Positions 12,001 through 26,727 of a DNA stretch of 64,000 nt are shown here, in pieces; position 1 is the stretch's first letter; each line of letters begins with the position of its first letter. Below the pieces are notes generated by a model, which was not told the DNA's origin, made no database searches, and was given only the letters and a program-made list of their open reading frames with translations. Both the position numbers and the translations under genes were made by a program. Source of the DNA: Promethearchaeota archaeon (lineage in GTDB: Archaea; Asgardarchaeota; Lokiarchaeia; Sigyniarchaeales; SOKP01); the NCBI GenBank assembly GCA_019057795.1, contig JAHLWS010000074.1, positions 21,725 to 85,724 of the forward strand, read 5' to 3'.

Positions 12001-15000
12001 GGCGCCGTGCTCGATAACGATCAATACATAGAAGAGGATAAGGAAGTTCACAAATACGAATATATTGAAGCGTTAGACGGGGAGACCGTTCATTACCTCA
12101 ATTTAGTATCTCCATTCGGCGATCCTAACTTTATCGACAGGGAAGAATTTGCGATTTATTACATTAACGATAATTTGGAAATAATTCCGCTTTATACCAA
12201 CCTTAGCGGCGATTATTTCAAACAGAGCGATATTTTAGACAAGAATCCCGTAATAAGCTATATTGACAATAGATTCGCCTTAAACATCTATTGGAACGAA
12301 GATTCCGACAGCTTCATTGATTACGATACTAACATATTGATCAGCTACAAAGTTCTTAAGGGAAGACCGATATCTCCGATGTCTTATAGCTCTTTTGACT
12401 CTTACGGAAATAACAAACGGCAAAACTTGATCGAAATACCGTTTGCCAGGTACGACATGATTACGCGCAGTTGGATTACCGAAGAAGATTTTATTGAACA
12501 ATTCCCTATTAGCAAGATGTTATTAATTAAAGAAGTGACAAGTATAGATATTACAATTGAAGGTCCAGAATTCAACGAAGCATCCGTATTCCGAACGGGA
12601 ATTATCGCGCTTGAAGGCGTATACGTCAATAAGAGCTATTCTAACTCGTTTAAACTTGAAAACTCAACCAAATATTCTTGTACCATCGATCAAGATGGAA
12701 AGTTAGTAATTTCCGGTCTTAATTATACGGAAGGAGATGTCTTTAAAGTCGCCTATTACGCATACGACCCCGTAAAAGTCATTCATTCCCTCAATCGGCC
12801 TAATTCGACCATAGATTATATAAAGATCACAAATGGAACCGGATTTGAATACGAATTTATTCTCAACCAAGATTATAAACTTTCGGTAGATGGTTATCAA
12901 ATTTTCTTCTTAGATTTATGTAATACTATTCTCAAGAGCGGTAATTTCTCTATATACGATACTTTTGAAATTAAATACCACGCCCCCTTATCAAGAAAAC
13001 TCGATCTTTCTCAGAATTTACTTCTAATGCTCCAAGATAGCAGTGGAAACGAAATACCAATTGACAGCGTCCCGATCGACAACTTAGGATTCTTTGAATA
13101 CGAGCAACAATTAAGGATTGATAGCCCCCTTTCGATTCCCCTCGGAGGAGGAAGGACTCTGGTTCACATGCTTCTTTCATACCTTCCATTAAACGTATTT
13201 AACAAGTCTTCGGGTCAATTATTCAATATAACCTATGAGGATCAAGACGTCGGCAAAATTTACGGAATTAAAGAAAGTAATAAATGGGTAAAATATTTCA
13301 CGATTACTACGATTCCGGAGAAGGTCAAGCTCACTATGGTAGAAGATCCCACCCAAAACATGATTATTAATCAAAAGTTCTACGAAGAGCGAGAATACCT
13401 ATTCAATTATAATCCGCTTGAAGCGCTCGAAAAGGACGAAGGATACACAAAAGTAATGATCGACGCTTTAGCAAGGGAAGATTACGAATTTACCTATAAA
13501 CTCACGGATTTCGAAGATAAACCGATAAATAACAGCATTGTTTGGCTTCACATTGGATTTATGCCAAAAAGCGAAACCAAATTCCTTAACGAGCGTACGA
13601 GAATTAACTACGATGATTCTCCAATCTATTTTGAATCGCTCGGTACCGAAGAGGTTACTTTTAGAGGTCCAGGAGAAGGCGCAAATAAGATGTTTGGACG
13701 ACCTCTAACTTACGAGACGGATAATAGTATCACGAATCTCACCGCCTATGGTCCTTACGCTTGGATATACGGAGTGACCGATGAGTTCGGTGAAGTAACC
13801 TTTGATATTTCGTTTGATAACGAATATATTAGAGATTTCATTAATATTTTTGGTAGCATAGAGGGTATAAATTCCATTGACGACATGGTACTCTATACTC
13901 GGGCATTTAACACTTATTTTGACTGGGACGAATTTGCCATTGACACACCTAATCAATACATCTGTTCTGAGAACGGGCAGATTTACGATGGTAGTAACAG
14001 AATTGAGAATTATGATTTTACTGACCTAGTACTTCAAGATAGTGCATATGCCGAAGGTATTATCCGATTACACAGACACGATATTGCGCTTGGACTTAAC
14101 GATTATCTCGTGTACAATTTACCCGATTCCGATATAAATGCTCAATACGATCCGATTACCCTTCACTTATATCTAACCGAAGCAACTCCTATTCCCACAG
14201 GAGCAACACCTACAATTGAATCTCTCACTAAAGTATATAGTAGCTCAGAATTAGAACCAACTTCGTATAACATTCTTGAAGATGATTACTTCTATTACGC
14301 ATCTATAGAATTTTATACGCCTTCGGGTCATTTAGTCAAAACGCTTTATAAAGAAATTAAAGTAAACGAATCTTACGATAGCGGAACTATTACTATTGGC
14401 AATGAGACGGTGAAAGAAATTCTTGACATGCTAGGTCCGGGCATCTCTGCTATGAGAGTTTACGTGTTCGAGACCGAATATTATAAGAGCTCTCCATTAA
14501 TTGGTATCCCAATTGAAGTACGTCCTCCCAACTGGATTAAATTCGGAGAGAAGAACACTCAGATCGACTTAATCGATCCGTTTGTATCTGCGTGGGGTAC
14601 GGCCTATAACAACGAAGAGGAGATGCCATTTGAGAGTATTTACCCCGTCTTAATGGGAGCAATTTGGGTCGATCCCGACTTTAACGGACCAACAGATGAA
14701 GAAGAGCGTTCCATACAGGATTATATTGGAATTAATTTAGATTGTACTATTTACAACGAAGACGGTACTACAAGTACATTCCCATTAAGAGATAATATTA
14801 TGCTTCGACCTGGAAACAACGATGGAGTAATGACTTTCAACGCACCTCTTGGACCAGAAGAGCACTTCCTCATGGGTTTACAATGCGATTTGAATTTATC
14901 TTTTAACATCGACTTTAATAAAGATCAGATTTACGAAGATCAAAGAGATGTTGAAATATTTTTATTAGACTTACGATTAGAAGCGAACCCATCAACTAAA

Positions 15001-18000
15001 GATCCAATAACTACTTGGTCAATATACGATGACGGCTTTAGTTCCGGAGAAATAACGGTACTAACTTCAAGCGAATCAATTTCTCCTCCAGAGTCAGGCG
15101 TAAAATATTTAGGCGGTACAGAAAATGGACAGATTTTCGGTCAAGAAATATCTTTCTTGTACTATAACGATTCCTTAGATTACGGTATTGAATCCGATAG
15201 CGAATTACTTTCGCTTTTAGCCTTAACCGAGATTACCGCGTTAAAAGTGGTCGGAATTAAGGACGGTAGCGAATACGAATTTGTTCAAGGAACCGATTGG
15301 ACTATGCCTTACTATCCTTCGGGAATTCTCTACAACGATTCGATCATTCGCTTTTCAGGAACTAATATACCCGACGAAGGCACAGAATTTTCAATCGTTT
15401 ACAAGCTAAAATTTGATTTCGAATCAAAAAGTTTCGGAAAGATTACTTTAGGTTATACCAATAATTACAATGAAAGTTCGATCGAGCTTCAATTACCGGA
15501 CGGATTCTTACCGGATAGCGATGAAGCCGTAGCTCCTATGTTTACTCGATTTTCAGATAATTTTACGGGCGATGGAACCCAAACTCAGTTTATCATGAGC
15601 TATGGACTTAGCGGAGTATCTCAATGGGACGGAAATTTCGTTATATATAACGAGGAAGAACTAATCTCCCAATTTGGAGCCTTTGATGAAGGAGTTTCTT
15701 CAGGACATCCTACTATCACTTTTACTGTAAAACCTCCTCCTGCCCAATCAAAGATTAACGTCACTTACGGAGTTAAATCTCAATACGATCTTTCTTACGG
15801 ATTCCAGAAAATCAATAAGTCTTATAGCGATTCAATAAGGCTAATGAGTAACGATGACACATCACCTCAAATAATTGACGAAGCTGATAGCGGACTGTCC
15901 ACCCGAGTTCTTGACAATTCGTCTTTGTATATTTCATTGGATAATTCGGAAGAAAAAACAACTCTTAAATTATTACAGGTACCTTTATTGTTTGCTCCTG
16001 AACTTAATCTTACTTTTACTTTTGATCAAATAGTACTGGATTATATCGAATCTTTTGATAACGATTTTAACAACCTTACTATCGAATTTAAATATATTAC
16101 GAAGGATGGATATTACGAATTTTATTCCGACCCAAAAATAATCCCTCTGAATTATTCCGAAATTTCGCCTGATATTATAGGTAATAGTTATTCTATTCTG
16201 TATAACAAAGACCTTCAGCCAATTTACGACATGGTTGGGACTGATAGTATCGATATTGAAATAACGCTATATCAAGCGGGAAATAGTGTTAATTACGCTC
16301 CATATATAATTTTAGAAGAATTTGAATATCTATCCGATACCCACATTGTTGAGATGTACGATAGAATGCCTCGTGATTATTACGGAAACATGGATATAGA
16401 CGCCGTAATTAATACGCCTCATTACTTCCAAGTATTCTCGAAACCATTAGTCGATTGTGAGTGGGGAGATTCGCCGTTTAATCTAATAGACGGAAGCGAA
16501 GTTACGGTAGGGCTTAAAGGCTTGCCTAACTCTTCCTTAGTTTCTTTAGATTACGATGGAGAGACTTATGGCATAGACTATTGGGGTTCGGAGAAAACGC
16601 TTCCAGTAAATCTTGAAAATTTCTTTATGATCCCTAACTTGGGAATGTATACAGATACTTACAACATAGAAGAGACTTCTTATCAAGACGGATATTTAGA
16701 CCTCTATTACGGCTCAGGTACGGAAATCGATGGAGAGAAGCTTTATACCTCGACAATCTATATGGATTACGAAAGTAGTCCAGTCGCCGATTATCGTTCG
16801 AGTATTTTAGATAATACTCCAACTTCATGGGCAACAACATTTGATTTTGCTGATAAATTTTTAACCACTTATGAAATGGAAGTAGAAGGACGCGTATTCT
16901 ATCATCAAGTATTTGATTTAGATACGGATATAAACACCACTTCCGAGATGAACGATATCTTCCCTGATTACAATACAAATATCTATTTCGGTCTGCAATT
17001 ACCTTCCGACCTTGATATTGATGAGATTAGAGAGATCGGTTTACCCTATTCGTACGCGTTATCCATTCAAGGATTTCCAGTCGGAGATTATAAAGACGAA
17101 TATTGTTTCGCACTCCCAACGGATAGCGGAGATTTCAATCCGACCACCGACCCATATCTACTCGAGAGTGATACGGAATACGCTTTAGAATTTGACGAAT
17201 ACGGAGCGCCATACATTCTATTCTTTAAACCGGTTGGAGATTTAAGCACTTATACGGACGCTCAAAATAAGATCATGATCGATTATTGGGCAAATCACGA
17301 ATTTATCGATAATCGCGATTATTACATCCACGAAAACCCAATAGACACATTTATTTCGCAGATCGAATGGGATTACAGCTACGTAGATACTGACAATTTT
17401 AACCTCCACCCCGACTTTACATACGATACCAGCTTTACCGTGAATTATTACGCCTTAGAATGGGAAATTTTCAACGAGGACTATATTAAAGACGGCGACG
17501 ATATATTTACCTTCCAACAGAGAGAATTTTACAACATTTCTGTGTTATATACGGGAGATACAAGCACCGATGAATTTAGCGTACAATATATCGTACCCGA
17601 GGGTCAATATTTAGAAGATCATATAATCTTCCCAACTATCTATGCATTGGCTCAGATTGATGACGATGAGGAAACAATGAGAGTAATTGAAATTTACAAT
17701 AGTTTGTTGCAAAATTATATTTCTCAAAATGCTCCTGATTCGTACAATTATACCGTTGATTTCGCCGAAATTGAAACTTATATTAATACCTATTTCCCAA
17801 GCTATCAATTGGTTGAAAATTCTTTTATGTATATAACCACCGAATATAACTCTACTCTACTGCGATATCCAATGGGCCATACGCCGTTCAATTACGACTA
17901 TTTAGGACCAGATCATTACGCCTACCATATCGCTCTATATATCAACGGTGAGTTTATCGCATATTCAAACGAAACCTTATTTAACGATTACGTGTTAAAA

Positions 18001-21000
18001 GTTGAAGATAATTATATTTATTTCAATAATAAGTCAAGAGGTCAAGCAGGTTATATCGACCCCGATAGTGAAATTCAACTAACTTATAAATTTAAACTTC
18101 AACCTGGATTACTTGATAGAAAACATTTTATGATAATTACCTATCCGTGGACGAATGTTTTTGAAACTGTTTTTGATCCAGTCTTAGGTGACGAACAATT
18201 AACTTATAGAGAAAAATATAGAAAATTAAGCGGAGGCTCCATAATTACGCCTTTTGAATATAGCCTTTCTATTAATACGAAATATACCCTTTACTTAAGT
18301 TATCGCTTAAATCAGAGAGAATATTACGAAGAACGGTTTGAGATAAAATCCGAGTACTATGACAGCGCTGAAGGCGGCTACGTGTATAAATTTATTTCCC
18401 AAGAGCTCGATAATTACATCGATGTGCTTGAGGATGAAAAAGGGGATTCTGTTAACGTCTTTTATTTCGATGCTCAAGGCAAAATGATATTCTTAGACGC
18501 TTCTCATTACAAAGTTACTATTGGTTCGAGACAAATAGTTATTAAAAACGATGGAAACGAATTAGTAGCTTCACACGGAGAATTTTACGTGTCCTTTATC
18601 TCGGACTACAACGATAAAGAACTTTTAAATTATCGCTTTTCTTACGACCCCGCAACGGATATAACAGCAACCTTAGATGTAAATTATTGGGATGTTATTG
18701 ACGCAGAGGGTATAGGCGTTATTCCAAATTTAGACGCGCCTTACTTCATGAACGAAGGAGAGACCACTCTGCAAAACGTTGTGTGTCAAGCTTCTCAAAT
18801 TGCTGCGTATCTTAGCGAAGGAACCAAATTAGAATTTAATTTAGAAGCAGAATTACAGGGATACGACCAACAATTGCTTGATGGAATACGCGATGGCAAC
18901 TATTCAGCGCTCTATATTGATACAAATATTAAAAACATAGATAGTTTAGATAATCTTACTATTGAACTCTACGACTCTTCAGGTATAATGTCTGAATTTT
19001 CTCAGAACATGACCAGAGATGAGTTGATAATGTACGACTACAACATCAAAATTAACTTGCCAACAGATACAAATACGCTAAAAAAGATTAGACTCGTTCC
19101 ATTTTTCAGATCAGATAACGAATATAACGCGGATAATACTATAGGCATTAGCAGAATTCAAGCAATGGTCTGGGATAATGAGCTTGTTTCCTTCATGGAA
19201 GACGATCAAGAGTATATGCACGTGAATTTAGAGCACGATTTAAAGACAGATATAAGCGGATACAAATTAGCTTACATTTATAACGATAAATTACAATACC
19301 TCGCCTACCCTGACGGTGTTTCGATTACATATACCAAGGATATGGATATATACACTTTACATATTCCAAGCGTCTATCTTAACCCTGACACGAACGAAAC
19401 TACGAGATTTCTGGAAGGGCAAGAAATTGTTTTGCGATACAATTCGCCCGTAAAGAAAGGCATAGCTGTCGGTATTGGTAAATTATACTTTGAGAACAAA
19501 GGATATAATTACGACTCGCATCCAGATATTCCTAAAGCAGAATTATTACTGGTTAACGCTAATTCTTCGGATACCAACACTTACGCTTACTCCGAATTTA
19601 TTAACGATTATTATTATCAAGCCCCAATACAGATAACTCCGTTTGATACCGAATATAACGGCAAATATAAAGCTATAAAGATCGATTTGAATATATCCGC
19701 TTTATTAGAAGCAGAAGGTCGTTTTGAACTAGATCTCAGTCATATCGTCTTTTCGGTACCGAATCCTTCTTACGAATTAACCATTAGTGAAGTACTTATC
19801 TTGGAAGAATCGTACAAACCAAACTTACAATATGGAAGTATGGACGAACGGGTATGGCAATATACCGAGGTCGAGATGTTTACCGCAAGCGCTAATCCGG
19901 AAGAGGATTCTTATCAATTAGCCCTAGAAAACGCCCCGTTATTCTATCCTGATACGGAATGGTTAGATTATCTCAATATTTTTGACGAGGATGGCAACTA
20001 CTATACAGCAGGAATCACAGGAGACGACCATCAATTACATTTCGAACCTTCAACTAACACGTTTACTTGGAACCCATCGTTTAACCAGTACCCCGAATAT
20101 TTCGGCATGGAATTCGAAGAGCCGTTATCGATTGAGCCTAATAAAACGCTTTATTTCGGATACGTCACCAATACCTCTTGGGCAGAACCGATCCTAATCG
20201 AAGCGGAGAACATTGATCTCGATTCTATTCGCGTAATTTACGATTATAACTATCTACTGAAACCGGAGTTTTACGATTGGTACGCTACATTGAACCTTAG
20301 TGCCCAACATTCCTACGAGAATATCGCGTATTCCTTTAAAGAAGAATCCGAATATAAGGTTGTTCAGTATTATTACGAGGAGTTTACCGTATATAGCGAC
20401 GCTTCTCAATACACCCATACGTTTGATATAGGCGGGCTTTCTTTTGAAAACGATTTTGTCAACTTAAGCGTGTTTAAAGTGGTTGGTTTAACTCCCACTT
20501 TAGAAACCGAAATTTTGACAAATAACGACAATTTTTCGATTAAATTTAATGCAAATACGAAAGAATTAAATATAACAGATTTGAACTTAGAAAACGGTTT
20601 ATTGAATGTTTTTGATCAAATTACTGCTATTTTAAATTATTCATACGGTCCAATTTCTAGCTTTTCCGAGATTTATTTATCGCCCGAATTTAACATTACT
20701 TACTTAACCGATCCGGAAGAAACCTTCTTTAGCAATGTCGATATCGATTATAACTATCGATCAAAATCGGGCACAGCTCTATTTGGAGAAGGTTCTGCAA
20801 CCATTAATAGCGACGATACTTCATTTGTTCCTATTGATTTCTGTCGAAATCCCGATATGAGCACCGATTATCAATTAAACGGCTACGGTTCGGAGTTATT
20901 TGATAATTTTGAGATTTACCAAGACGAAAGCTCTATAATCTACGTAGCAGACATAGATATGGACGGGGAACCTGACTATAAGCACACGATCGATGTAGAC

Positions 21001-24000
21001 AAAGACGGAAAGATCGATGTTATTAGATACGGCCTTGACGATCCGCAGGGTTCCGGTGAGATTTATTGGCATACGGTTATTCAAGATTTTGAAAGTCGAG
21101 AAATTAAAGTAAAGCGAGAATTAGAAGAAGAGAAAAGAACCGAATGGTTTGACATAGATGACCGCGCATTTGCCTATTACGATTTTAATGTTTTGAAATT
21201 ACTATCAATTGTACTTGGATTACCTTTGTTATCGTATCATATTGCCAAAATGATGCTTCCCGACGTAGACTATTGGGCTCAAAAATCTATTCAGCAATTA
21301 GTCCAGAAACAGGAGTACGTAAAATCTTCCTTCTACAGCGTGACGATTGATAACGACAGGGATGGCTACACCGATTCTCAGATAAATTACGAGAAAACAG
21401 ACGTTAACATATATTACGATATTAGCGAATATAAGAAAACAATTATTGCTGCCAAGCATCAAGATATCGTTACCTATTTAGGAGAGTACATTGCCAAAAG
21501 TATAAGTTCCTTATTCACGGGCTCCCGAGACGATCCGATTTTTAACGACCAGTTAACCGAAGCCCATCTCGACTCTTCCGATTTTGGCTCTTGTAATTTA
21601 TATACCCAGATGAATGCAGCTGTTTTGAACGCGACATACAGAAAATTCTCTGAATATACCCTCTCGTCTTATATCGATACACTTGAGCGCTCCACATTGA
21701 CCGTAATCGGCTGGAACGAAGGAGAGATCGAAGAGCAAAGGATTTATACGGACGATTTTGAGAACGGAGAGATTGAAAATGCGGACGACTTTTTCTCGAG
21801 CTTATCGGCAGAGCATTCGGTCACCGACATTGACACGGGACAAGAAGTTACCGTTGATTTCGACTCAGAATTTCCATACACTCATCCAGCTAATATTAGT
21901 TGGGATTGCGAAACATGGGGTCCCGATAACGTTCCTATTAAATACGACTCCTTGCAGGTGATAGGAGAAGATTATTATTATGCTACAAATAAATTCGAAA
22001 AAGAAATTATTATTAGAATTCCGAATCGATTCTCGTTATACAACGATTTTGGTAAAGTTAGTAAGTTCAGCGTGGAAGACGGCGGTTGGGTTGAGTTTAA
22101 AGTTAAAGGTATGCTTATAACCCCTCCCGATGGTCAAGTATATTATACTTCCGATGTCGATTCCTTTGTTTCCGATTCAGCAAAAGTTAGCGGGTTTTAC
22201 TTCTACGTGGATTCTGATTTGAATGGATTTTTTGAAACAGTTTATATTCTAAACGATTACTATACTTTGGATGCTTCAGGTACTCCAGTATATACCGTTA
22301 TGTCAATAGGAATGAATTACGATGGTATTCACGATTTTGCACCCTACGAACGATTATACGACAGAGAGCTCGTAGTCTCTAATTTCGAGACGTTGACGCA
22401 AGAATCCGTCATGTTTGGAAGCGATTGGATTTACAATTTCAGGCACTTAAAGGACGAAGATCTTTTGAAAGAAACCGAATCTAAATTGGAAGAAAACAAC
22501 TTAAAACCAAAAGACCAAATATTTGAGATTTACAAACTCGTACAAATGAGCGAGCAAAACAGCGAATTTTCCGAGTTATTCTACGAAATTAGGCACAAGA
22601 CTTATTCAACCGCGTGGGAGCAATATAAAGAGCAATTAATAGGAGATATTGCCGAACAAGTGTTCATGTCGGTCACTGCCTCCCTTCTTAGCGCGACGGT
22701 GGAAGCCATCCTTACCGGAGCCACATTTGGTTTCGGATGGCCAGCTGCTAAAGCTGCTGCGACTTTAACTTATATGGGAGTCTATACTTTAATGACTAAA
22801 TTTTACGTCGACATAGACCTCGCCAAAGCAGAAGCTGAAAAGCGCTCTCAATCGTTCTACTCGGTTTCGAGCGAGACTCGTGAGCCTACTTCCCTTAACG
22901 AAAAAAACGCCTTGGATAGGGTTCTCGGCGATAGCATGGCGGCAGCACTTATAGGACATCCTGGCGGATATTACACCGAGGTGAGTGGAGGAGAACCGGG
23001 TAATATGTATACAGGTCAGCTACTAGTAAGTCCTCCCAATCTTTTACGCATGCTTTATTCGTTTGAAGGCTTTTTAGATTTACTTTGGGAAAACCTCTGG
23101 AGCATGGGAGAATCGGACCCCGATGTTTACGCCGCTCTCGATTTTGACGACATTAATTTGGATTACTTTTTACTCACTAGCGAATTACCCTCTTACAATC
23201 AGAACCCCTATTACACCTACGAGAACGCGGACGGTATTTTTGATTTGTACAACATGTATGCCCTAAACACCTTAGGCTACCTCGAAACTCAAGTAAGTCA
23301 AGCTTCTAACGGGCAGTACGACGCAATTCGAGCGACCTGCATAGACGGAAGACCACAATACGAGTTTATTAATAGCACCTTGTACCAAGCAGTAAGACCG
23401 CAAAGCGTGTTATATAGACCGATCGTGTTAAGCCAAGAAAGGTACGACCAACTACAACCAGCGCCCGGTAGTTTAGTAGTAAAAGCCCGATGTAAAGATT
23501 ATAGCAACACTATCGGAATAGACGCTTACGCAATGGGCGATGTGGAGCGCGAGGTGTACGCGGCAAAAGTTCCGCTCAACGACAACGGTTTTGAGTACCC
23601 TATTCGACACATTTCAATTGACGTGGTAAAGTACAACATTTACACCGGCTTCAGTTATTTTGTTAAGGGTCTTATCGTGAACGAGTCGGATTATTCTATC
23701 GATCTTGGCAACCTCTATTTCGCGAAATCCATCGAAGCGATCGTATCGGAAAAACATAGCGGGTTCGAAGACTTTTTAAGCTACGCGTTAGCACACGAAA
23801 TAATAGAATCGAAAATTTACTTTAACATTCACATAGTTTTTGACGTGTTTATCCCCGACACCACTGAAGAGACAAGCAGGTTGGCTTTAGCCCAAGCAAC
23901 ATCCCATACAATCATGGATTATTTTAATCAGTACGTTTTTGCGGAAGTTTCGGCTAATTCTATTTCAGAGATTGCCTACACAGAGACTATGACTTTCTGG

Positions 24001-26727
24001 TCTACTTTAATCAGCGCTCCCCTCGTGTATTTCGGCTCCTGGGCTATAAAAGGCACGGATAAGATGATGGGCGAGGCATCAGTAAAGTTAATTAAAGCGG
24101 GGGAAATAACTAGAGGACAAGCGATTAAACAAATGCTACTTAAATCATTTGCCGGCATGGCTCTAAGCCCCATTAAAGAAGTATTTGAAGAAATCATTAA
24201 AGACGGGTTTACTGAAGCGTTAGCAGAGAATCTCATCGACATGGCGGGAGGAACGGACGACTTAGGTTTCTGGGTCTCTTCCTTTATTACTTCCAGAAGA
24301 GAAACTACGGGAGCGTTAGGACAATTAGCGCTCGGAGACGCCAGCGTAGCTTTCGGGGACGCCAACCTAAAGACAAAGCTTTCCCTTATTAGCGCGAGGA
24401 TATCGGGGGACGCAAACGCCATCGCAGAGATCACAGCGAGCGTTCAGCAGAACGTAGAGCAAAAGCAGGCAGCTGCGGAGGTAAAACGGCAACAAATGAA
24501 ATCGTGGCAGAAAATGCTAAGTTCCGGATTCTTTAAGGGACTTCTTATGGTGCTTCCCGCGGCTCTTTACGGCTCGTTTAGTTTTGCCGCGTTAAAGGGT
24601 CTTAACAACATGATCGAGTCCACCCAAAGCGCGATACCGAAAGCGTACGCGAAATATAAGTCCGAAGTCCAAGCTTACAGGAAAGGAAAATTGCAGAAGA
24701 TGGTCGGAACGCAAGACGCTTTAATAAACAATTTGCAAGAATATACGAAGAAACCCGCGGAATTAGAAGCTGCCAAACCCGAGATCAACGAGAAATACAA
24801 AGCCACCCAAGATACCGAAAGAGATAACCCTCCTTTAGCGGCATTTCTTTCCAGTCTTAACCCCAATCCAAAGACAGAATCGAAAAAGAGTCTTGCTAAC
24901 AAGTTTTACGAGATTCTTTCCAGCACTTATTTTGAATCTACAGACCAATTTGACGATTCCCAACCTATCGGTGAGGATACTCAAACAAGTAGGATTCAAG
25001 TGGTCGAAAAGAAAGCAGAGACAAGCGATCTCGAAATTTCAATTTCTATCGGTGACGATTTTGAAGGATTATTCCCTGAACTCGACAAGGATGCGATTAA
25101 TTACATTTACTCAAAGTTGTTCGATCCTGAATACGACCAAAACAAGCCTAAAGACGTGTTAGGACAAATAAATTATCGCTGTAGTTTAATTTCAGAAGCA
25201 AGGCAAATCTTAAAATCTACAAAGTATTACGGTTTAGATGTACTTATTGACGAGATAATTAATCCTTACGTTGTAACTATTCTTGAGAACAAGTTTAGTA
25301 AAGGAGAGGAATTTACGAAATTAGAAAGGATAATAATGGATGTTGCAAGCTTTTATATGGGGGGCGCTCAAATTAAACATGATGGAGGGTACGATCTAGA
25401 TACTATAAAAGAATACGAAGAAGAGACGGGTAAGAAAGCGTTTTTGAGCAATAGCCCAACAAAAACTTTTAAAGAATGGTTTAGTGCAAGACAAGTAAGA
25501 GATGAAATCCGGGAGAAGATCGATGGACTTGTAAAGACTGTGGTTAACGATTATATGGAAAGTCTTGATAAGAGCAAACTTAAATTTCGCCAACTACATT
25601 TTCAGGATTATGTAAGCGATCCATCGGATGTAGATAAAATATATAACAACAGAAAAAAGTATTGTTGGACCGGCATAGTCTATCGTATTACGGAATTTAA
25701 AGAAGAGAACGGAAAAATAGTTGAAGGAAGGAAGATATACGGGTTTTCCATGGACAATTTGGAGAGTCGATGGGAGCATTACAAGGAGCAAGCTTTAGAT
25801 CCCAATAGAGATAATCAACCCATACACGATGCTATTTTAGCTATAGCTCAAAAATATGATGAGGGTGAAATTGATAACGATATTGACGATTGGTTTAAAA
25901 GGGAGGTTGTTGAAGTTCATTGGGATGAGAATTCAATGCGTCAAAGAGAGAGGGATTGGATTAAAAAAGATAATACGCAAGACCCCGCTGTAGGATTCAA
26001 CAAACAGCCCGGGGGCGAAGGAGGTCCTAAAATTCATATTCCGATTAGGTTATTAGCTGAGTACATTGCAGAAGGTTTAAAGGTTTCTGAGATTAGCAGC
26101 GAATTGGAAAATCATGGAATATATGTAGCATTAACTACAGTCTATAAAAGAATTAATGAGCGTTATGGAAGTTTTATTGAAGCTAGAAAAAGATTTTTAA
26201 AACCCGTTATAGAACAACTAATTAAAGAAGGATATGAAAAACAAGAAATTGCGGGATGTTTAAAAACTAAATCTAAACATTTTTTCAAAACTTGGATACC
26301 CAAAATGTTCGAAGTCTCTTCTTATACCGCATTGCGAGAACAATATTTACTGGAAATGATATCGGCGATATTAGAGACAGGGATTCAAAGCTTCACTTAT
26401 GAAAAGATACAGTCGTTTTTACCGCAATTTGGAAAACACGAAGTAAAACGCTTGATTATAAATGAGTGGAAAGGGATTATAAAAGCAAATATTCAATTTG
26501 GGAGGGAGATTGCTATTTACTTATTTAGAAGAGGAATGTCGGACGAATATATTTTAAAGGTGCTGGGATTTTCTGAAAGCTATATTTCTAAATCATCAAA
26601 TCGAAAGCGTGCATTTAAAAGGTTATTCAACGGAATGACCGCCGACGAAGCCCGTGAACATTTTACTTCTGAATATAAAAACGTAGAAGATCATTTCAAA
26701 TGGTATTCGGATTTAGATAATTATTAA
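1..26727 (+). CDS. Giant (>=8908 aa, 5'-truncated) surface/secreted multidomain protein with LamG/Ig/jelly-roll modules, hydrophobic helices and a C-terminal GIY-YIG nuclease plus HTH repeats; candidate polymorphic toxin
   Basis: Frame 1 is open from base 1 (NFGTTRTVWNLGG...), so the TTG at 82 is not the true start. Acidic, aromatic-rich and rich in N-x-S/T sequons for most of its length. LamG motifs are present, and the C-terminus has GIVY...IYG...RW...RERDWI...GFN. Confidence 0.9.
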   Translation, partial: NFGTTRTVWNLGGTHTLNPIPYLQQPNLNTFIPIKNSNDIHLNPITIDNLNEDTIKDGVIKLALISYVLPSNGSSFSFDRADPFTPISVSQSIDLVESLFIGESVQLMHPDSSIETSLELDSGTYRADLSGLDIGEIVAVKGIYVDPDSVIQQYPIEYFWITDSNELAFNSPMKHLFSNVSIEYVPQLPLTENYPAEFPGFYYLPNSTIVGSTTFTEPYFVTNVEDDTTFFGTYVHPDIPVGYSLSHNEYGWYVVFDQSVSNPRGAVRFAKINNTYISIFSIKDTLAYKYNILDSASDFAGGTLNLILKAGFNDVFYSELSQVACNDYKVKITFFKRDINGIETNIGTVYKLLDSSQLGFHSYNLEISLSEITEGIGLLVDVISRDSESELYVTVESIISNSRVDGNLFKGFFAQEIVEASLIIDTPDSELLFDDMKVETPYIEIPQLSIPLTKIAKATYQFDLSSLKYNFDFDITEIRAEGVPLSQQDYEFDLSQNIVVLKGDYREYSGLLFADLSYKAFEWNDGFVSTLEPISFNFATNYTDKIAKYLVFDINFDSAGIPGYQLEKVDTASGRVVMAEESKDATSLLLYLYNFIEDKWEFIDFVVYDTYLGSFTYVADRLFTTFEDYFNSTGTSEFEVKLMLAVDETVGDCFSSSVGFIIDQISANIYFKSPNVEHSVRPEVVFDVDLTKYFTDSNIYVDEVQLKLDYISKIDSSFAFSEHALIEENYNFYVLNKFLEFEEVELIDRSIILSRNALNDLLLYDSNNEKYFVQIKIEYDWNCILEMNIEFDSRLEIKSSLQLLDYALTVSYTEYEITRISAQETRSPYELTAIYAPGYVQNATGFVILETDNIVDIGTLAGFLRNADSRQRLMLRQQLYYQFSESTDGPIALLLDQTYTDINLRFVSPLGELTRPQDFICDNTYFQFIVDHEVVSVELLFFNGTDYEQVGFFEQSFLSQILYEYGWNNISGATEKNTGDFVQIKIILTDIFNNKNEIIYEFLADFDSPSPTISIANGVQSFETAPANPLTGISFESGEDMAIARWEFKDGSGTIATDTYGTNHGTLYNMEDADWQEGILEFNGTDEYIQVANDNYLQFGYSDSFSIMAWIKTDSDGTIIRSEGSVSGAYGLAVQSGKVNFLIEDQDYNLLSFTGKTLVNDNEWHQIIGIRDTSTNNLIICVDGNYDYSITDTTVSSLDTGQDIFIGTTKIGTQFYDNFSGSIDDICIFNYAISSDVVSNLFFFQIESDKMENAWFRFDEGIGNIAHDKLGIDAYIYGEQNWIGGSSARWGDYAVDFNPQEYVPQQGLDEDFDVIEGSSDWQGDLSQQNGDYIKFTSSGDQFIGDQELWDEGFSQSESHLQNSFLPDAYSSFQSWNPLYMTNGFPTTSVVNDWIDWSLINNNQAYTSSSWNGLGNFNSHLNYGTYTDVPAQDLVPSGDFDMINYENSDWAGDLTTNDDYTNFTSIPDGFDYDHANHEPYYENLWNATTSEEAGHYPGTYSFRGENGKTDLDIDFVDSLNTGGSVEIVSEYQNHKSVLHLTETITYRGFYHFFDSNQISGTMEWWSLAPQNDDYCIVNIMEGGSLRMRIAFDDDGGSANIEYNDGAWHNIMAYSINTWYHFKIEFDCSTDTWDIYINGVLKINDASFSGDASYIDRIDYDNELDAESYYDAFGFSWDSNYTLGDNWHYDYHQGSQTFENYNTSSYGDYYGTYSFTDDTAGGNPTGWGISETGGTVNVVAEKDNHKKVLELYDDDAENRVSALNSFTIQTDATIEFWWAHEASLSYHHYLHLRIREGGTERVRILFSYQAVGQIVSHDGSAYVSIVTGLSSNTFYHIKLVLDDSANTFKCYVDGVDKGTFDYFSNSIVGIDSIYMLTRGGNSGGAFTHWFDAFGYSGDNYEIGDNINPYGILPELKNDGWNIDAGAGSSVRITGEDTSHKKNLELLLPVDSYAGLYNDFDSGQTSGTVEFWFKTTDYWDPNQMHVEDGSSADSLYFWVDEGQFRYTDDSGTHNIVACANNVWHHVKLSFNLTTGSPTTNWWACWINDVYYGSYVDGFNGDPSAMDRTMFKSDGHVTPHWMYIDAVGYSWDPNYEIGDNYLFNIHYKNHIYAPGGTNAAWTMDPLYMQSGFPDKTVNEGFSGWTPNSDSDYTTVSWDGNGNFDNAVKKRNVASVTHDASWGSGAMSNFYTDNDQYYNIYRSTYNNLDSGSYRLVSDNGNTLTDVIPSDQGNYQEQRDDTGWSQYTDDSKVRRFRYTRQTTLPGWTLEVYDEYSVSASVSNPPSGKSWVAQDLSIEFREATWKIYGGSGSWIYHQAYHDTSGWVTLGSRQLSTSDSYTSYSYNKNPNDYMDESKNVRMRVKIVVPCANYGVFVERAKFQYDIDLCGVLVHWKANEVDPRINFESGLFNGAREFRLFFQGITSQGIADLYVLEGEYWVKRISDIGSASWKTVSNVLIYNVNDIMLELGNAGDVQTLTIDYLYLYCEDTGSIHQAQLGKTITDPFLNQYDSYGNYQKKYDVTVSFEYKFAKAVNDLSYYSAWVDIPGTTDSLPATGVWTTKEYTFEFDSTSTSGFDIVFRTKNGYLDLQNMNYNFKFKCLDTSGHIRLFQSIEADYPYQDTLSQFVKDNGHFYLDFTYNFVTSDDDLTYYNSYDRTYKLEVIATIKADGAWQTAIPLNQTSTPTSGTYRFDVRGYMDSQGWSTFEDIKLEFVVSGDPSSLTVSDVSLFDYRAWRPAELEFTIDANMPDLTADDSLDRVELFYRYDTDPIIDTFGLYVYNYITSEWDLINGEQPTSGFFESSFNLTSDHYDASHNMQFKINGTYGVVFEFGKQFDFLLDKFYVEYDWTRTSGEIYADLINTIYDPLLNRYDSFDDYKKLYNISINFDYQFNTQDANYGDFAKFYVETTEGSFEIFDLTKDGQVNNLQCSFEFNSTSRADFDVKFRISNGDLDLNNFQIEVTFKCFKDDVSGDRLLEQIFEADYEGSLTQEEKEIANFYCDIYYNFTTVDDGLSYVNSYGGNDKLEIIYGVKADGQWFSQVYSTSISESKDPLTFNVRDFMDQQGVFVFEDFNATFVLSGDQSALNVSQLRFYDHEIDPAVVHFTVETPVNINAPAEGIELHYALRTNITQQDRFNLKVKIWNYATSQWDLISYLYGTDIPDSFEKFIFVLDSCYCNPDNNIVNLSLYAENYVDLFEIHLDLLKTVVVDYVEAPILIDTGLTPFTFASWIRLDSLTDTVSLYGEYNDLTSDARNHIYVNADGSIYFAQSLSSAATSNAGLMTTGTWIHVVVIKSGDEIRFYKNGELFGTPVIYNEDYSGPTPTKTGIGSRFADSTWYNDPLDGSIDDLRLFNQSLTLTEIKWIFGFGQGRYKSLDRLSGTEFQFVPLEEYRIIDLTTGITSEWITFHTPQIKKLDDLGDLPANFSIEYRVFDFAGNVAYNTTYNNGFKNILFSREIEIPISWTGTEENKLDLNVVGQERELFIEKNPQFGDVSSLDVYINGFRYGTATLNGDNYRLSFGSDNTKNTLIAYSDSLMSNNIYSNINPLNHISWEVREDDSFTVVKHVLVDSDIVIINPLSYNASNALDLNHLYDREFGLPNFVRMKQAYYYDYNITTDESELRYLDYGFDYGIDSDGQVIFPELSVVHELYNNLTTVKDECVYFEYSASEFSNQLSLNNADGFFINFTMPALYYGHTTIDTLVVSFNDFLGNSFAKKFFDLDLREYFLDNVKDDYAEDVFGLGKMMVIPLYINLRELAFSNPNNPFDLTLLESISFTISDSERWPGSFALDFEDQQYEVTNLPYQRAGIKDLKLFNLISDSIEPDENGFVTSEIIFRTPDYYNFFGKSELKIKRMNIDITDVKLFDNGQEINSYREVEYSDFIEAYMMHDNSFAQIPLGDLITLPVSLVNDTSLEPLAFGAMYYITKYDKNAPTGYFHKYYYSKFEVPKKLGVFDLFFNSQGTPLHNITIGNNDIKFTLNVTQEELSNYSPIYLENYVDELEYGHSLILKGAVLDNDQYIEEDKEVHKYEYIEALDGETVHYLNLVSPFGDPNFIDREEFAIYYINDNLEIIPLYTNLSGDYFKQSDILDKNPVISYIDNRFALNIYWNEDSDSFIDYDTNILISYKVLKGRPISPMSYSSFDSYGNNKRQNLIEIPFARYDMITRSWITEEDFIEQFPISKMLLIKEVTSIDITIEGPEFNEASVFRTGIIALEGVYVNKSYSNSFKLENSTKYSCTIDQDGKLVISGLNYTEGDVFKVAYYAYDPVKVIHSLNRPNSTIDYIKITNGTGFEYEFILNQDYKLSVDGYQIFFLDLCNTILKSGNFSIYDTFEIKYHAPLSRKLDLSQNLLLMLQDSSGNEIPIDSVPIDNLGFFEYEQQLRIDSPLSIPLGGGRTLVHMLLSYLPLNVFNKSSGQLFNITYEDQDVGKIYGIKESNKWVKYFTITTIPEKVKLTMVEDPTQNMIINQKFYEEREYLFNYNPLEALEKDEGYTKVMIDALAREDYEFTYKLTDFEDKPINNSIVWLHIGFMPKSETKFLNERTRINYDDSPIYFESLGTEEVTFRGPGEGANKMFGRPLTYETDNSITNLTAYGPYAWIYGVTDEFGEVTFDISFDNEYIRDFINIFGSIEGINSIDDMVLYTRAFNTYFDWDEFAIDTPNQYICSENGQIYDGSNRIENYDFTDLVLQDSAYAEGIIRLHRHDIALGLNDYLVYNLPDSDINAQYDPITLHLYLTEATPIPTGATPTIESLTKVYSSSELEPTSYNILEDDYFYYASIEFYTPSGHLVKTLYKEIKVNESYDSGTITIGNETVKEILDMLGPGISAMRVYVFETEYYKSSPLIGIPIEVRPPNWIKFGEKNTQIDLIDPFVSAWGTAYNNEEEMPFESIYPVLMGAIWVDPDFNGPTDEEERSIQDYIGINLDCTIYNEDGTTSTFPLRDNIMLRPGNNDGVMTFNAPLGPEEHFLMGLQCDLNLSFNIDFNKDQIYEDQRDVEIFLLDLRLEANPSTKDPITTWSIYDDGFSSGEITVLTSSESISPPESGVKYLGGTENGQIFGQEISFLYYNDSLDYGIESDSELLSLLALTEITALKVVGIKDGSEYEFVQGTDWTMPYYPSGILYNDSIIRFSGTNIPDEGTEFSIVYKLKFDFESKSFGKITLGYTNNYNESSIELQLPDGFLPDSDEAVAPMFTRFSDNFTGDGTQTQFIMSYGLSGVSQWDGNFVIYNEEELISQFGAFDEGVSSGHPTITFTVKPPPAQSKINVTYGVKSQYDLSYGFQKINKSYSDSIRLMSNDDTSPQIIDEADSGLSTRVLDNSSLYISLDNSEEKTTLKLLQVPLLFAPELNLTFTFDQIVLDYIESFDNDFNNLTIEFKYITKDGYYEFYSDPKIIPLNYSEISPDIIGNSYSILYNKDLQPIYDMVGTDSIDIEITLYQAGNSVNYAPYIILEEFEYLSDTHIVEMYDRMPRDYYGNMDIDAVINTPHYFQVFSKPLVDCEWGDSPFNLIDGSEVTVGLKGLPNSSLVSLDYDGETYGIDYWGSEKTLPVNLENFFMIPNLGMYTDTYNIEETSYQDGYLDLYYGSGTEIDGEKLYTSTIYMDYESSPVADYRSSILDNTPTSWATTFDFADKFLTTYEMEVEGRVFYHQVFDLDTDINTTSEMNDIFPDYNTNIYFGLQLPSDLDIDEIREIGLPYSYALSIQGFPVGDYKDEYCFALPTDSGDFNPTTDPYLLESDTEYALEFDEYGAPYILFFKPVGDLSTYTDAQNKIMIDYWANHEFIDNRDYYIHENPIDTFISQIEWDYSYVDTDNFNLHPDFTYDTSFTVNYYALEWEIFNEDYIKDGDDIFTFQQREFYNISVLYTGDTSTDEFSVQYIVPEGQYLEDHIIFPTIYALAQIDDDEETMRVIEIYNSLLQNYISQNAPDSYNYTVDFAEIETYINTYFPSYQLVENSFMYITTEYNSTLLRYPMGHTPFNYDYLGPDHYAYHIALYINGEFIAYSNETLFNDYVLKVEDNYIYFNNKSRGQAGYIDPDSEIQLTYKFKLQPGLLDRKHFMIITYPWTNVFETVFDPVLGDEQLTYREKYRKLSGGSIITPFEYSLSINTKYTLYLSYRLNQREYYEERFEIKSEYYDSAEGGYVYKFISQELDNYIDVLEDEKGDSVNVFYFDAQGKMIFLDASHYKVTIGSRQIVIKNDGNELVASHGEFYVSFISDYNDKELLNYRFSYDPATDITATLDVNYWDVIDAEGIGVIPNLDAPYFMNEGETTLQNVVCQASQIAAYLSEGTKLEFNLEAELQGYDQQLLDGIRDGNYSALYIDTNIKNIDSLDNLTIELYDSSGIMSEFSQNMTRDELIMYDYNIKINLPTDTNTLKKIRLVPFFRSDNEYNADNTIGISRIQAMVWDNELVSFMEDDQEYMHVNLEHDLKTDISGYKLAYIYNDKLQYLAYPDGVSITYTKDMDIYTLHIPSVYLNPDTNETTRFLEGQEIVLRYNSPVKKGIAVGIGKLYFENKGYNYDSHPDIPKAELLLVNANSSDTNTYAYSEFINDYYYQAPIQITPFDTEYNGKYKAIKIDLNISALLEAEGRFELDLSHIVFSVPNPSYELTISEVLILEESYKPNLQYGSMDERVWQYTEVEMFTASANPEEDSYQLALENAPLFYPDTEWLDYLNIFDEDGNYYTAGITGDDHQLHFEPSTNTFTWNPSFNQYPEYFGMEFEEPLSIEPNKTLYFGYVTNTSWAEPILIEAENIDLDSIRVIYDYNYLLKPEFYDWYATLNLSAQHSYENIAYSFKEESEYKVVQYYYEEFTVYSDASQYTHTFDIGGLSFENDFVNLSVFKVVGLTPTLETEILTNNDNFSIKFNANTKELNITDLNLENGLLNVFDQITAILNYSYGPISSFSEIYLSPEFNITYLTDPEETFFSNVDIDYNYRSKSGTALFGEGSATINSDDTSFVPIDFCRNPDMSTDYQLNGYGSELFDNFEIYQDESSIIYVADIDMDGEPDYKHTIDVDKDGKIDVIRYGLDDPQGSGEIYWHTVIQDFESREIKVKRELEEEKRTEWFDIDDRAFAYYDFNVLKLLSIVLGLPLLSYHIAKMMLPDVDYWAQKSIQQLVQKQEYVKSSFYSVTIDNDRDGYTDSQINYEKTDVNIYYDISEYKKTIIAAKHQDIVTYLGEYIAKSISSLFTGSRDDPIFNDQLTEAHLDSSDFGSCNLYTQMNAAVLNATYRKFSEYTLSSYIDTLERSTLTVIGWNEGEIEEQRIYTDDFENGEIENADDFFSSLSAEHSVTDIDTGQEVTVDFDSEFPYTHPANISWDCETWGPDNVPIKYDSLQVIGEDYYYATNKFEKEIIIRIPNRFSLYNDFGKVSKFSVEDGGWVEFKVKGMLITPPDGQVYYTSDVDSFVSDSAKVSGFYFYVDSDLNGFFETVYILNDYYTLDASGTPVYTVMSIGMNYDGIHDFAPYERLYDRELVVSNFETLTQESVMFGSDWIYNFRHLKDEDLLKETESKLEENNLKPKDQIFEIYKLVQMSEQNSEFSELFYEIRHKTYSTAWEQYKEQLIGDIAEQVFMSVTASLLSATVEAILTGATFGFGWPAAKAAATLTYMGVYTLMTKFYVDIDLAKAEAEKRSQSFYSVSSETREPTSLNEKNALDRVLGDSMAAALIGHPGGYYTEVSGGEPGNMYTGQLLVSPPNLLRMLYSFEGFLDLLWENLWSMGESDPDVYAALDFDDINLDYFLLTSELPSYNQNPYYTYENADGIFDLYNMYALNTLGYLETQVSQASNGQYDAIRATCIDGRPQYEFINSTLYQAVRPQSVLYRPIVLSQERYDQLQPAPGSLVVKARCKDYSNTIGIDAYAMGDVEREVYAAKVPLNDNGFEYPIRHISIDVVKYNIYTGFSYFVKGLIVNESDYSIDLGNLYFAKSIEAIVSEKHSGFEDFLSYALAHEIIESKIYFNIHIVFDVFIPDTTEETSRLALAQATSHTIMDYFNQYVFAEVSANSISEIAYTETMTFWSTLISAPLVYFGSWAIKGTDKMMGEASVKLIKAGEITRGQAIKQMLLKSFAGMALSPIKEVFEEIIKDGFTEALAENLIDMAGGTDDLGFWVSSFITSRRETTGALGQLALGDASVAFGDANLKTKLSLISARISGDANAIAEITASVQQNVEQKQAAAEVKRQQMKSWQKMLSSGFFKGLLMVLPAALYGSFSFAALKGLNNMIESTQSAIPKAYAKYKSEVQAYRKGKLQKMVGTQDALINNLQEYTKKPAELEAAKPEINEKYKATQDTERDNPPLAAFLSSLNPNPKTESKKSLANKFYEILSSTYFESTDQFDDSQPIGEDTQTSRIQVVEKKAETSDLEISISIGDDFEGLFPELDKDAINYIYSKLFDPEYDQNKPKDVLGQINYRCSLISEARQILKSTKYYGLDVLIDEIINPYVVTILENKFSKGEEFTKLERIIMDVASFYMGGAQIKHDGGYDLDTIKEYEEETGKKAFLSNSPTKTFKEWFSARQVRDEIREKIDGLVKTVVNDYMESLDKSKLKFRQLHFQDYVSDPSDVDKIYNNRKKYCWTGIVYRITEFKEENGKIVEGRKIYGFSMDNLESRWEHYKEQALDPNRDNQPIHDAILAIAQKYDEGEIDNDIDDWFKREVVEVHWDENSMRQRERDWIKKDNTQDPAVGFNKQPGGEGGPKIHIPIRLLAEYIAEGLKVSEISSELENHGIYVALTTVYKRINERYGSFIEARKRFLKPVIEQLIKEGYEKQEIAGCLKTKSKHFFKTWIPKMFEVSSYTALREQYLLEMISAILETGIQSFTYEKIQSFLPQFGKHEVKRLIINEWKGIIKANIQFGREIAIYLFRRGMSDEYILKVLGFSESYISKSSNRKRAFKRLFNGMTADEAREHFTSEYKNVEDHFKWYSDLDNY
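3121..3723 (+). other. Intact LamG/concanavalin A-like domain in the giant protein
   Basis: ARWEFKDGSGTIATD...LEFNGTDEYI...FSIMAWIK...NDNEWHQI...FSGSIDDICIFNYAIS. Confidence 0.9.
4480..6288 (+). repeat. Three ~190-aa lectin-like beta-sandwich protein repeats
   Basis: Shared motifs YxGTYSF, HK(S/K)xLxL, SGT(M/V)E(W/F)W, W(Y/H)H(F/I/V)K, DA(F/V)G(F/Y)S(WD)xNYxxGDN. Confidence 0.85.
7450..9600 (+). repeat. Tandem duplication of a ~360-aa block (7450-8526 and 8530-9600)
   Basis: TITDPFLNQYDSY/TIYDPLLNRYDSF; FKC..RL..IEADY; KADGAW/KADGQW; VVSGDPSSL/VLSGDQSAL; YNYITSEWDLI/WNYATSQWDLI. Confidence 0.9.
25666..26025 (+). other. GIY-YIG endonuclease-like domain near the C-terminus of the giant protein
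   Basis: WTGIVYRIT...KIYGFS...LESRWEHY...RQRERDWIKK...GFNKQPGG follows the GIY / YIG / Arg / Glu / Asn order of I-TevI-type catalytic domains. Confidence 0.8.

Follow-up and report, generated by a model that had tools for sequence, protein, structure and literature searches.

A short, unnamed mini-domain at the ends of many unrelated proteins, RNA polymerase A' included, in one order of Asgard archaea

The window analyzed here, a stretch of 64,000 nucleotides from a Promethearchaeota archaeon (GenBank assembly GCA_019057795.1, contig JAHLWS010000074.1, positions 21,725 to 85,724), encodes the C-terminal part of a giant protein and, 37 kb away, a leucine-rich repeat (LRR) protein. An earlier note, made from the sequence alone, described three copies of a short motif, one in the giant protein and two at the end of the LRR protein, and took them for a mobile interaction or nucleic-acid-binding module that could link the toxin-like tip of the giant protein to LRR proteins. 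The locus thus raises two questions: are the three copies related beyond chance, and, if so, what is the element that they share? We find that they belong to a real family, an unnamed, promiscuous, mostly terminal and autonomous mini-domain, which is more general than the giant/LRR pair. The most notable result of this study is that, across the order, the mini-domain is fused to RNA polymerase A' as well as to numerous signalling proteins.

Translation confirmed all three copies at the positions given in Table 1; the core of the giant copy reads exactly YDLDTIKEYEEETGKKAFLSNSPTKTFKEWF, inside the giant open reading frame (ORF). Pairwise identity among the three copies is just 21–26%, and therefore statistical support must come from profiles. 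For this we used an independent profile of 196 copies from database proteins (labelled P throughout), from which the orthologues of the giant tail and all LRR-family copies were left out. Among the 61,311 ORFs of the genome, it finds the giant copy with 31.9 bits (E 2.5e-7) and the second LRR copy with 41.6 bits (E 2.2e-10); in the reversed ORF database, its top match scores 11.5 bits. For these two copies the similarity goes beyond chance. The first LRR copy obtains 13 bits (E 0.2) and improves to E 1.2e-6 once the first copies of orthologous LRR proteins join the model, which points to a divergent, family-specific first copy; its nearest copies, P0039, P0087 and P0015, all belong to the LRR family. 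Apart from orthologues, the nearest relatives of the giant copy are ordinary consensus-type copies and not those of LRR type.

When all six-frame ORFs of this genome (4.95 Mb, 31% GC) were searched with a hidden Markov model (HMM) of the three copies, seven more were revealed, and iteration converged at ten; a broader profile raises the number to 16 copies in 13 ORFs. With a profile of the ten genome copies, a search of 1.84 billion cluster representatives yielded 404 clusters at E ≤ 1e-3, 36 of them at E ≤ 1e-10, with arrays of up to 7 copies among the database proteins and many unrelated carriers. The mobility proposed in the earlier note is thus borne out, and the search for further copies, which it had named as the check to be made, returned hundreds of matches, pointing neither to chance similarity nor to a known Pfam family. 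Pfam-A (to E ≤ 10), NCBIfam and PHROGs contain no model that matches the motif segments, and a search of the PDB sequences with the family profile gave chance-level matches only (E ≥ 0.1). We found no description of the module in the literature on RNA polymerase C-terminal extensions of Lokiarchaeota/Lokiarchaeia, Rpo1N and Asgard Lsr2. The carriers go by the names "hypothetical protein" or "leucine-rich repeat domain-containing protein" and originate from "Promethearchaeia archaeon" or metagenomes. In agreement with the earlier note, which recognised no named family in the motif, none covers it in these collections.

From 227 unique copies we derived the consensus [YF]-E-x-E-T-G-K-x-A-[IV]-[WY]-x-G-x-x-T-[KE]-x-[FY]-x-x-W for a domain of roughly 30–35 residues. 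The consensus first read from the three copies, YExxTxKxAxxxxxPTKxFxxW, comes near to it, except for the proline before T-K (SPTK, RPTK, TPYK), a minority state found in 9% of copies at that position. This variant occurs in the giant copy, in several LRR-family copies and, among the array proteins described below, in the second of their two types of repeat. Both aromatic positions of the second helix (see below) are aromatic in all 227 copies, the position before E in 99%. K18 (87% K, 7% R), T27 (92%) and K28 (70%) are the most conserved polar residues, and A20 and G24 are kept in 90% and 86% of copies, respectively. At the three aligned loop positions, R-G-[KR], R is present in 42%, G in 86%, and K or R in 56%; the giant copy has S-N-S. 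This copy is divergent, with AFLSNSPTK in place of the usual AIW[R]G[K].TK, and so lacks the loop Trp (Leu here) and the Gly (Asn here). It retains Y-E, T-G-K, A, T-K, F, and W of the family signature. The second LRR copy preserves all residues of the signature, those of the loop included, except the G of T-G-K, which is Asn.

Moving from the single genome to higher taxonomic levels, the mini-domain is present in 40 of 41 relatives; the exception is a genome with a completeness of 66%. When 300 further genomes were sampled evenly over the phylum, two families of the same order were positive (68 of 68 and 7 of 7 genomes); in the remaining 225 genomes, two of which represent other orders of the class, the mini-domain was not found in a single case. 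All four genomes from a third family within the order were positive too. These counts are samples, and in the sense of not being found outside the order among the genomes searched, the mini-domain is restricted to one order of Promethearchaeia (Lokiarchaeia, Asgard archaea).

One carrier is A' (Rpo1N), the largest subunit of RNA polymerase. In 22 of 22 genomes checked, from two families, the conserved core of A' stops near residue 875 and is followed by an extension of 95–320 residues that ends in the mini-domain. The family to which the window belongs has a single tail copy after a linker rich in Lys, Pro and Thr. In the second family, genome G030 has a single copy as well, and genomes G032 and G025 have three copies each.

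The remaining carriers are of very different kinds. Where a protein has one copy, it mostly sits at the extreme N- or C-terminus; the other carriers are tandem arrays, and a few copies are internal. A census of Pfam domains over the 147 best database proteins revealed Response_reg (10 proteins), LRR (8), HisKA (6), Ras/Roc/Arf (3), RNA polymerase Rpb1 domains (3), zinc ribbons (3), NosD/beta-helix (2) and SHOCT (2), together with NUMOD3, ribosomal eL13, Na/Pi cotransporter and dNMP kinase in one protein each. Grouped by similarity to the carriers of the genome under study, 21 proteins are of response-regulator type, 14 of array type, 10 of LRR type, 3 of polymerase and 2 of ABC-ATPase type. 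The 13 carrier ORFs of this genome are included in Table 1. Its two tandem response-regulator genes encode the mini-domain, followed directly by a segment that can be read from its sequence as a putative ribbon-helix-helix (RHH), a HisKA and a receiver (REC) domain, and the pair is kept across the genus.

The 44-residue stand-alone protein (MAKKKAEG.PKLESLK.QY.EETGKNAIHCGKLTKGFQEWKKKK) consists of a Lys-rich N-terminus, a mini-domain of the AIHCG variant, and a KKKK end. It is conserved in at least eight genomes, and therefore the module works as an autonomous unit. Conserved gene neighbours of it were not found beyond close relatives. Array proteins start with an N-terminal domain of about 165 residues without a Pfam match, which is followed by alternating repeats on Lys/Pro-rich linkers (also at L148:38-1270), namely type A, YE..T.K.A.W.G..TK.F..W, and type B, Y/F..KTG..PYYKG..T..Y..YL. 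In the genome under study the array gene is seen only as two fragments at contig ends, and the repeats are the probable cause of this break in the assembly. The ESM Atlas returned no usable match for the stand-alone protein or for the N-terminal domain of the array proteins. The three large paralogous ORFs have a divergent internal copy, LYRQETGRRPIYSRKKTKGYSQWL, in common, and one of them contains a LAGLIDADG_3 domain.

Table 1. Coordinates of the features discussed. Plain numbers are window positions; G, C and L denote genomes, contigs and loci (G000, the genome under study).
Feature	Location	Strand	Remarks
Giant ORF	1..26727 (5' end outside the window); C74:7136-48448	+	13,771 aa stop to stop
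Mini-domain copy of the giant protein	25381..25500 (core 25390-25482)	+	HMM envelope aa 13324-13363; 1 copy in this carrier
GIY-YIG-like region	25654..26016	+	just downstream of the mini-domain, not part of it; motifs GIVY...IYGFS...RW..Y
Tandem helix-turn-helix-like helical repeats	26044..26676	+	C-terminal end of the giant protein; Foldseek matches to AraC-type DNA-binding domains
LRR carrier protein	60702..62366	+	N-terminal hydrophobic segment, conserved domain of ~260 aa without Pfam match, LRRs, two terminal mini-domains
Mini-domain copy 1 of the LRR protein	62109..62207	+	divergent subtype YEQTHTNNAIYGNTPYKHFLVWL, also seen as the first copy in orthologous LRR proteins
Mini-domain copy 2 of the LRR protein	62235..62339	+	YEKSTNKSAIWSGRPTKAFLKWL, near the family consensus
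RNA polymerase A' gene	G000:C82:104997-107975 (L006:998-3976); also L146, L147, L150-L169		carrier; module at C-terminus
Two tandem paralogous HisKA-REC genes	G000:C70 (L001:2038-3081, L001:3279-4283)		carriers; module N-terminal
ABC ATPase			carrier; module at N-terminus
Stand-alone protein	G000:C66:20093-20224 (L002:1094-1225); also L170-L178		carrier; 44 aa
Two contig-end fragments of an array protein	L004:1-792; L005:3-230	-; +	carriers
Three large paralogous ORFs	L037:9-3686; L038:56-4477 (-); L039:3-3323		carriers; 1107-1474 aa
184-aa ORF			carrier

With the spread of the family in view, the suggested tie between the giant protein and the LRR protein can be assessed. In the giant protein, the mini-domain sits about 410 residues ahead of the C-terminus and is followed by a GIY-YIG-like region and helical repeats. 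The former has an invariant R138, E198 and N215 in a 12-row alignment, while its second Tyr is not conserved; AlphaFold2 (AF2) models it with a predicted local distance difference test (pLDDT) of 85–92. It has no Pfam match, and no GIY-YIG structure was among the Foldseek matches listed. The helical repeats match AraC-type double helix-turn-helix (HTH) domains with a Foldseek probability of 1.00, a TM score (target) of 0.62–0.74 and a root mean square deviation of 2.6–3.6 over about 110 residues, at E values of just 0.06–0.3. The AF2 model of the whole tail has a mean pLDDT of 78.2, with mostly 74–93 in the helical-repeat blocks. Of the 12 rows used for it, three cover the mini-domain, which obtains a pLDDT of 32–54, and that part of the model was not used.

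Of 100 other genomes in the family, 22 contain homologues of the giant tail, and some of the ten that we examined are ORFs of 404–480 residues (L028-L036). Their matches start after the module, and all ten lack it, which indicates that the module is an add-on to this particular giant tail and not part of a conserved cassette. An exception is given by genome G204, in which one short tail match spans the mini-domain region. Among the orthologues of the giant tail only P0107 and P0065 retain the module, the latter being a protein of 444 residues that begins at the mini-domain and shows 62% identity to the giant's tail. A second copy of the tail, interrupted by TAA, is located in the same genome at G000:C21:95764-96672 (L041), and this pattern as a whole resembles that of a mobile gene of homing-endonuclease type. 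Near the N-terminus of the giant ORF (aa 298–460) there are about six segments of strong hydrophobicity, and Ala/Gly-rich, only weakly hydrophobic segments precede the tail (aa 12417–13053, window about 22660–24570); a middle part of 11,000 residues lies between the N-terminal segments and the tail.

That the shared module couples the nuclease "tip" of the giant protein to the LRR protein, e.g., in toxin-partner or toxin-immunity recognition, would be in accordance with their location on one contig and with the minority Pro-Thr-Lys variant in both proteins. We nevertheless regard such a coupling as exceedingly improbable. Eleven further ORFs of the genome carry the module, among them RNA polymerase A', the ABC ATPase and the two response regulators. 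The LRR gene that directly adjoins the giant gene (26790-27710) has no copy, and the same is true of the ten tail homologues examined. LRR proteins that end in two copies are also found among the database proteins, and the nearest non-orthologous relatives of the giant copy, as stated above, are of consensus type. At this locus, the proposed special tie between giant tip and LRR protein is thus not supported. The other half of the earlier proposal, an interaction or nucleic-acid-binding role, remains the best reading, and is weighed below.

The carriers that are anchored in membranes bear on the cellular side on which the module operates. The LRR protein of the window (Pfam LRR_4 5.6e-20, LRR_8 3.4e-14; no match beyond aa 452) has orthologues of the same architecture in P0015, P0049 and P0087. 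It begins with the hydrophobic segment LFLVILIICITLCSTFVIT (window 60702-60790), which is present in P0087 and absent from P0015 and P0049, and which may be a membrane anchor or may reflect a start codon that was called differently. The N-terminus is acidic and the hydrophobic segment is followed by HKVK; by the positive-inside rule, this order suggests an anchor with the N-terminus outside and the C-terminus inside, the bulk of the protein being cytoplasmic. In transmembrane carriers such as P0012, P0023, P0120, P0121, P0125/P0157, P0077 and P0136, the module lies beside Lys/Arg-rich flanks or at a signal-less N-terminus; in P0113 its side is ambiguous. Presumably, then, the module is found on the Lys/Arg-rich, cytoplasmic side of the membrane carriers. 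This fits poorly with an exported toxin tip on the giant protein and suggests that the C-terminal tail of the giant protein, too, faces the cytoplasm.

A cytoplasmic module near membranes might bind phospholipid head groups at the interface and thereby hold its carriers at the inner membrane face. The composition, rich in Trp, Tyr, Phe and Lys, would suit such a function, and in many carriers that are anchored in the membrane the module is part of a cytoplasmic tail, in P0113 and P0045 only a few residues from the membrane segment; the hydrophobic start of the LRR protein points the same way. However, RNA polymerase A', response regulators with a putative RHH segment and a nuclease-like tail are not expected at a membrane. 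The aromatic residues are predicted to lie in the core of the domain and not on an exposed amphipathic face, and helix 1 is acidic. We therefore consider membrane binding very improbable.

This prediction derives from an AF2 model of the giant copy (51 residues, 72-row alignment), which has a mean pLDDT of 83.4 and, across the motif, blocks in which the value exceeds 90. The model comprises a helix (residues 13–23), an extended loop of 11 residues with short beta bridges, and a second helix (35–50). The mini-domain is thus predicted to fold as helix-extended loop-helix round a small core that includes the three conserved aromatic positions. Foldseek against the PDB yielded nothing at E ≤ 0.001. 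VIA-align against 48,161 chains gave a best Z of 3.9, with generic helix hairpins; in a domain so small, this neither names the fold nor shows it to be new. Readings as a WW domain or a villin headpiece were dropped, as the AF2 helices have a different spacing and there is no Pfam match.

Taking distribution, carriers, and predicted fold together, we tentatively favour the mini-domain as a tethered nucleic-acid-binding module, a reading that we hold to be the most probable single one while still short of an even chance. The module would anchor its carrier to nucleic acid, probably to the DNA of the AT-rich genome, and its contacts would come from the conserved lysine in T-G-K, from the loop that holds the Gly (often R-G-K), from Thr-Lys where helix 2 begins and from basic flanks. 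Carriers anchored in this way would comprise RNA polymerase A', the RHH response regulators, the GIY-YIG-like/HTH tail of the giant protein, the Lys-rich arrays and the tails of membrane proteins, so that the giant and the LRR protein would be two of many carriers and not a specific pair. Three observations lead us to favour nucleic-acid binding. Among carriers with a readable function, many act on DNA or RNA; both the stand-alone protein and the linkers of the arrays have a strongly basic character; and the polar positions with the highest conservation, at the Gly-containing loop and at the start of a helix, are occupied by Lys and Thr. Zinc ribbons, NUMOD3, ribosomal eL13 and LAGLIDADG among the carriers add to this nucleic-acid context.

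Several findings weigh against it. No known DNA- or RNA-binding family matches the mini-domain by sequence or fold in Pfam, among the PDB sequences or in the fold searches. At the sequence level, this includes the C-terminal DNA-binding domain of Lsr2, discussed below: the family HMM obtains about 0 bits on 120 Lsr2 proteins, and hhalign of the 227 copies gives a probability of 0.13% (E 0.45) against 21 diverse actinobacterial Lsr2 domains and of 0.36% against the domain of M. tuberculosis alone, which is identical to that in PDB 6QKP and 2KNG. The loop Arg, found in fewer than half of the copies (42%), is absent from the giant copy and from the first LRR copy; since it is not general, an AT-hook-like insertion is not the function of the whole family. 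Hydrophobic residues occupy most of the conserved positions, whose role may be structural and nothing more. The linkers of the polymerase tails in G032 and G025 are acidic or Ser-rich instead of basic. Finally, LRR proteins, Ras/Roc/Arf GTPases, the ABC ATPase, the Na/Pi transporter and beta-helix surface proteins are carriers without an evident link to nucleic acids.

These very carriers, as well as the multivalent arrays, are explained at least as well by protein-protein docking. The mini-domain would then be a "sticker" that associates with itself or binds a common hub, so that its carriers are co-localised and the arrays serve as multivalent scaffolds. The functional diversity of the carriers, the position of the module mostly at a protein end on low-complexity linkers, the scaffold-like proteins with up to 7 copies on disordered linkers and the polymerase tails with three copies on acidic linkers are all compatible with docking. 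Moreover, about eight hydrophobic positions in a hairpin of some 30 residues may leave an apolar face exposed, and the weak fold matches are mostly to helix-hairpin docking or dimerisation domains (PKA D/D, Mozart1), at Z scores of 2.8–3.3 that are not discriminating. On the other hand, no partner of the module is known, no conserved gene neighbour of the stand-alone protein was found, and the Lys-rich ends of that protein and the Lys-rich array linkers look more like those of nucleic-acid binders. Docking appears to us possible, albeit rather unlikely; together with nucleic-acid binding it ranks above membrane binding and giant-LRR coupling, which are both less likely.

In a more far-reaching reading, the module would be one common address tag, by which RNA polymerase, RHH regulators, GTPases, LRR proteins and the cytoplasmic tails of surface proteins are gathered on chromatin or on an array-built scaffold. 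We consider this reading doubtful. If true, transcription and signalling in these close archaeal relatives of the eukaryotes would be organised by a multivalent element specific to the lineage, functionally comparable to polymerase tail repeats or to membrane-chromatin tethers of LEM/HeH type. If the module binds DNA, as we tentatively assume, it would define archaeal nucleoid-associated proteins of a new class, along with a new contact between polymerase and DNA; as a docking module, it would point to a system of protein sorting or scaffolding. The Asgard archaea are studied for clues to the origin of eukaryotic cell organisation, and nearly every searched genome of this order contains an undescribed module.

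Among known systems, SHOCT and the SEC-C motif resemble the mini-domain in their mode of occurrence, as they comprise 20–40 residues, occupy the very termini of a wide range of unrelated proteins and are sometimes found as stand-alone proteins. Their sequences are unrelated, and they are widespread in bacteria, whereas the mini-domain, among the genomes searched, was found only in one archaeal order. SAP, HeH, and LEM appear to share with it the small two-helix build and a conserved Gly in an extended loop. Such modules are often terminal and promiscuous, and some of them tether membrane proteins or enzymes to chromatin. They differ in their Leu-rich core, in contrast to the aromatic core of the mini-domain. 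Pfam SAP, HeH, LEM and Rho_N gave no match at E ≤ 10 for segments of 87 and 94 residues, and SAP/HeH/LEM/Rho_N structures were not among the best fold matches, although the AF2 topology is helix-extended loop-helix.

A formal likeness was seen in the C-terminal DNA-binding domain of Lsr2 (PF23359; 2KNG, 6QKP), with about 35–40 residues, two helices, a loop of about 11 residues that holds a Gly with basic flanks, a helix 1 that ends in a Gly and has an aromatic residue five positions ahead of it, a flexible basic linker as a tether and an AT-rich or AT-targeting setting. Lsr2 contacts DNA in the minor groove, as do H-NS, MvaT and Rok (PMC9410896). The mini-domain might hence be a distant member of this family that binds the AT-rich minor groove likewise. 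The spacing is identical, aromatic-x4-Gly and then G-x2-[AV]-x3-G-[KR]-[IL]-[PT] into helix 2, and hhalign picks exactly this register; the predicted helix-loop-helix topology and the AT-richness of the genome (31% GC) agree with it. Yet besides the profile comparisons given above, PF23359 (cut-off 26.9 bits) matches none of the mini-domain copies in the six-frame genome, where its best E value of 1.7 lies elsewhere, although the same search recovers Lsr2 with 72 bits from the genome of a Mycobacterium. Lsr2 was not among the 50 best of the 48,161 chains matched to the 51-residue model, a result that, with a best Z of 3.9 for any chain and a model so short, does not decide the question, and the Arg before the Gly is missing from most copies, that of the giant protein included. 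The core of the mini-domain (Tyr/Phe, Trp, Phe/Tyr, Trp) differs as well, and so do its taxonomic range, one Asgard order versus Actinomycetota, and its presence in arrays and on dozens of protein types. Judged by these sequence comparisons, membership in the Lsr2 family is not supported, and we consider it quite improbable. A mode of action similar to that of Lsr2 is possible for copies that bear R-G-K, such as those of RNA polymerase.

For the polymerase copies in particular, the C-terminal domain of the alpha subunit of bacterial RNA polymerase (alpha-CTD) offers no more than an analogy. It contacts AT-rich upstream DNA and activators. It belongs to another subunit than A'/Rpo1N and to another fold class, and no similarity in sequence or structure was found between the two. 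What both have in common is the arrangement, in which a flexible linker connects a small helical module to the terminus of one of the polymerase subunits.

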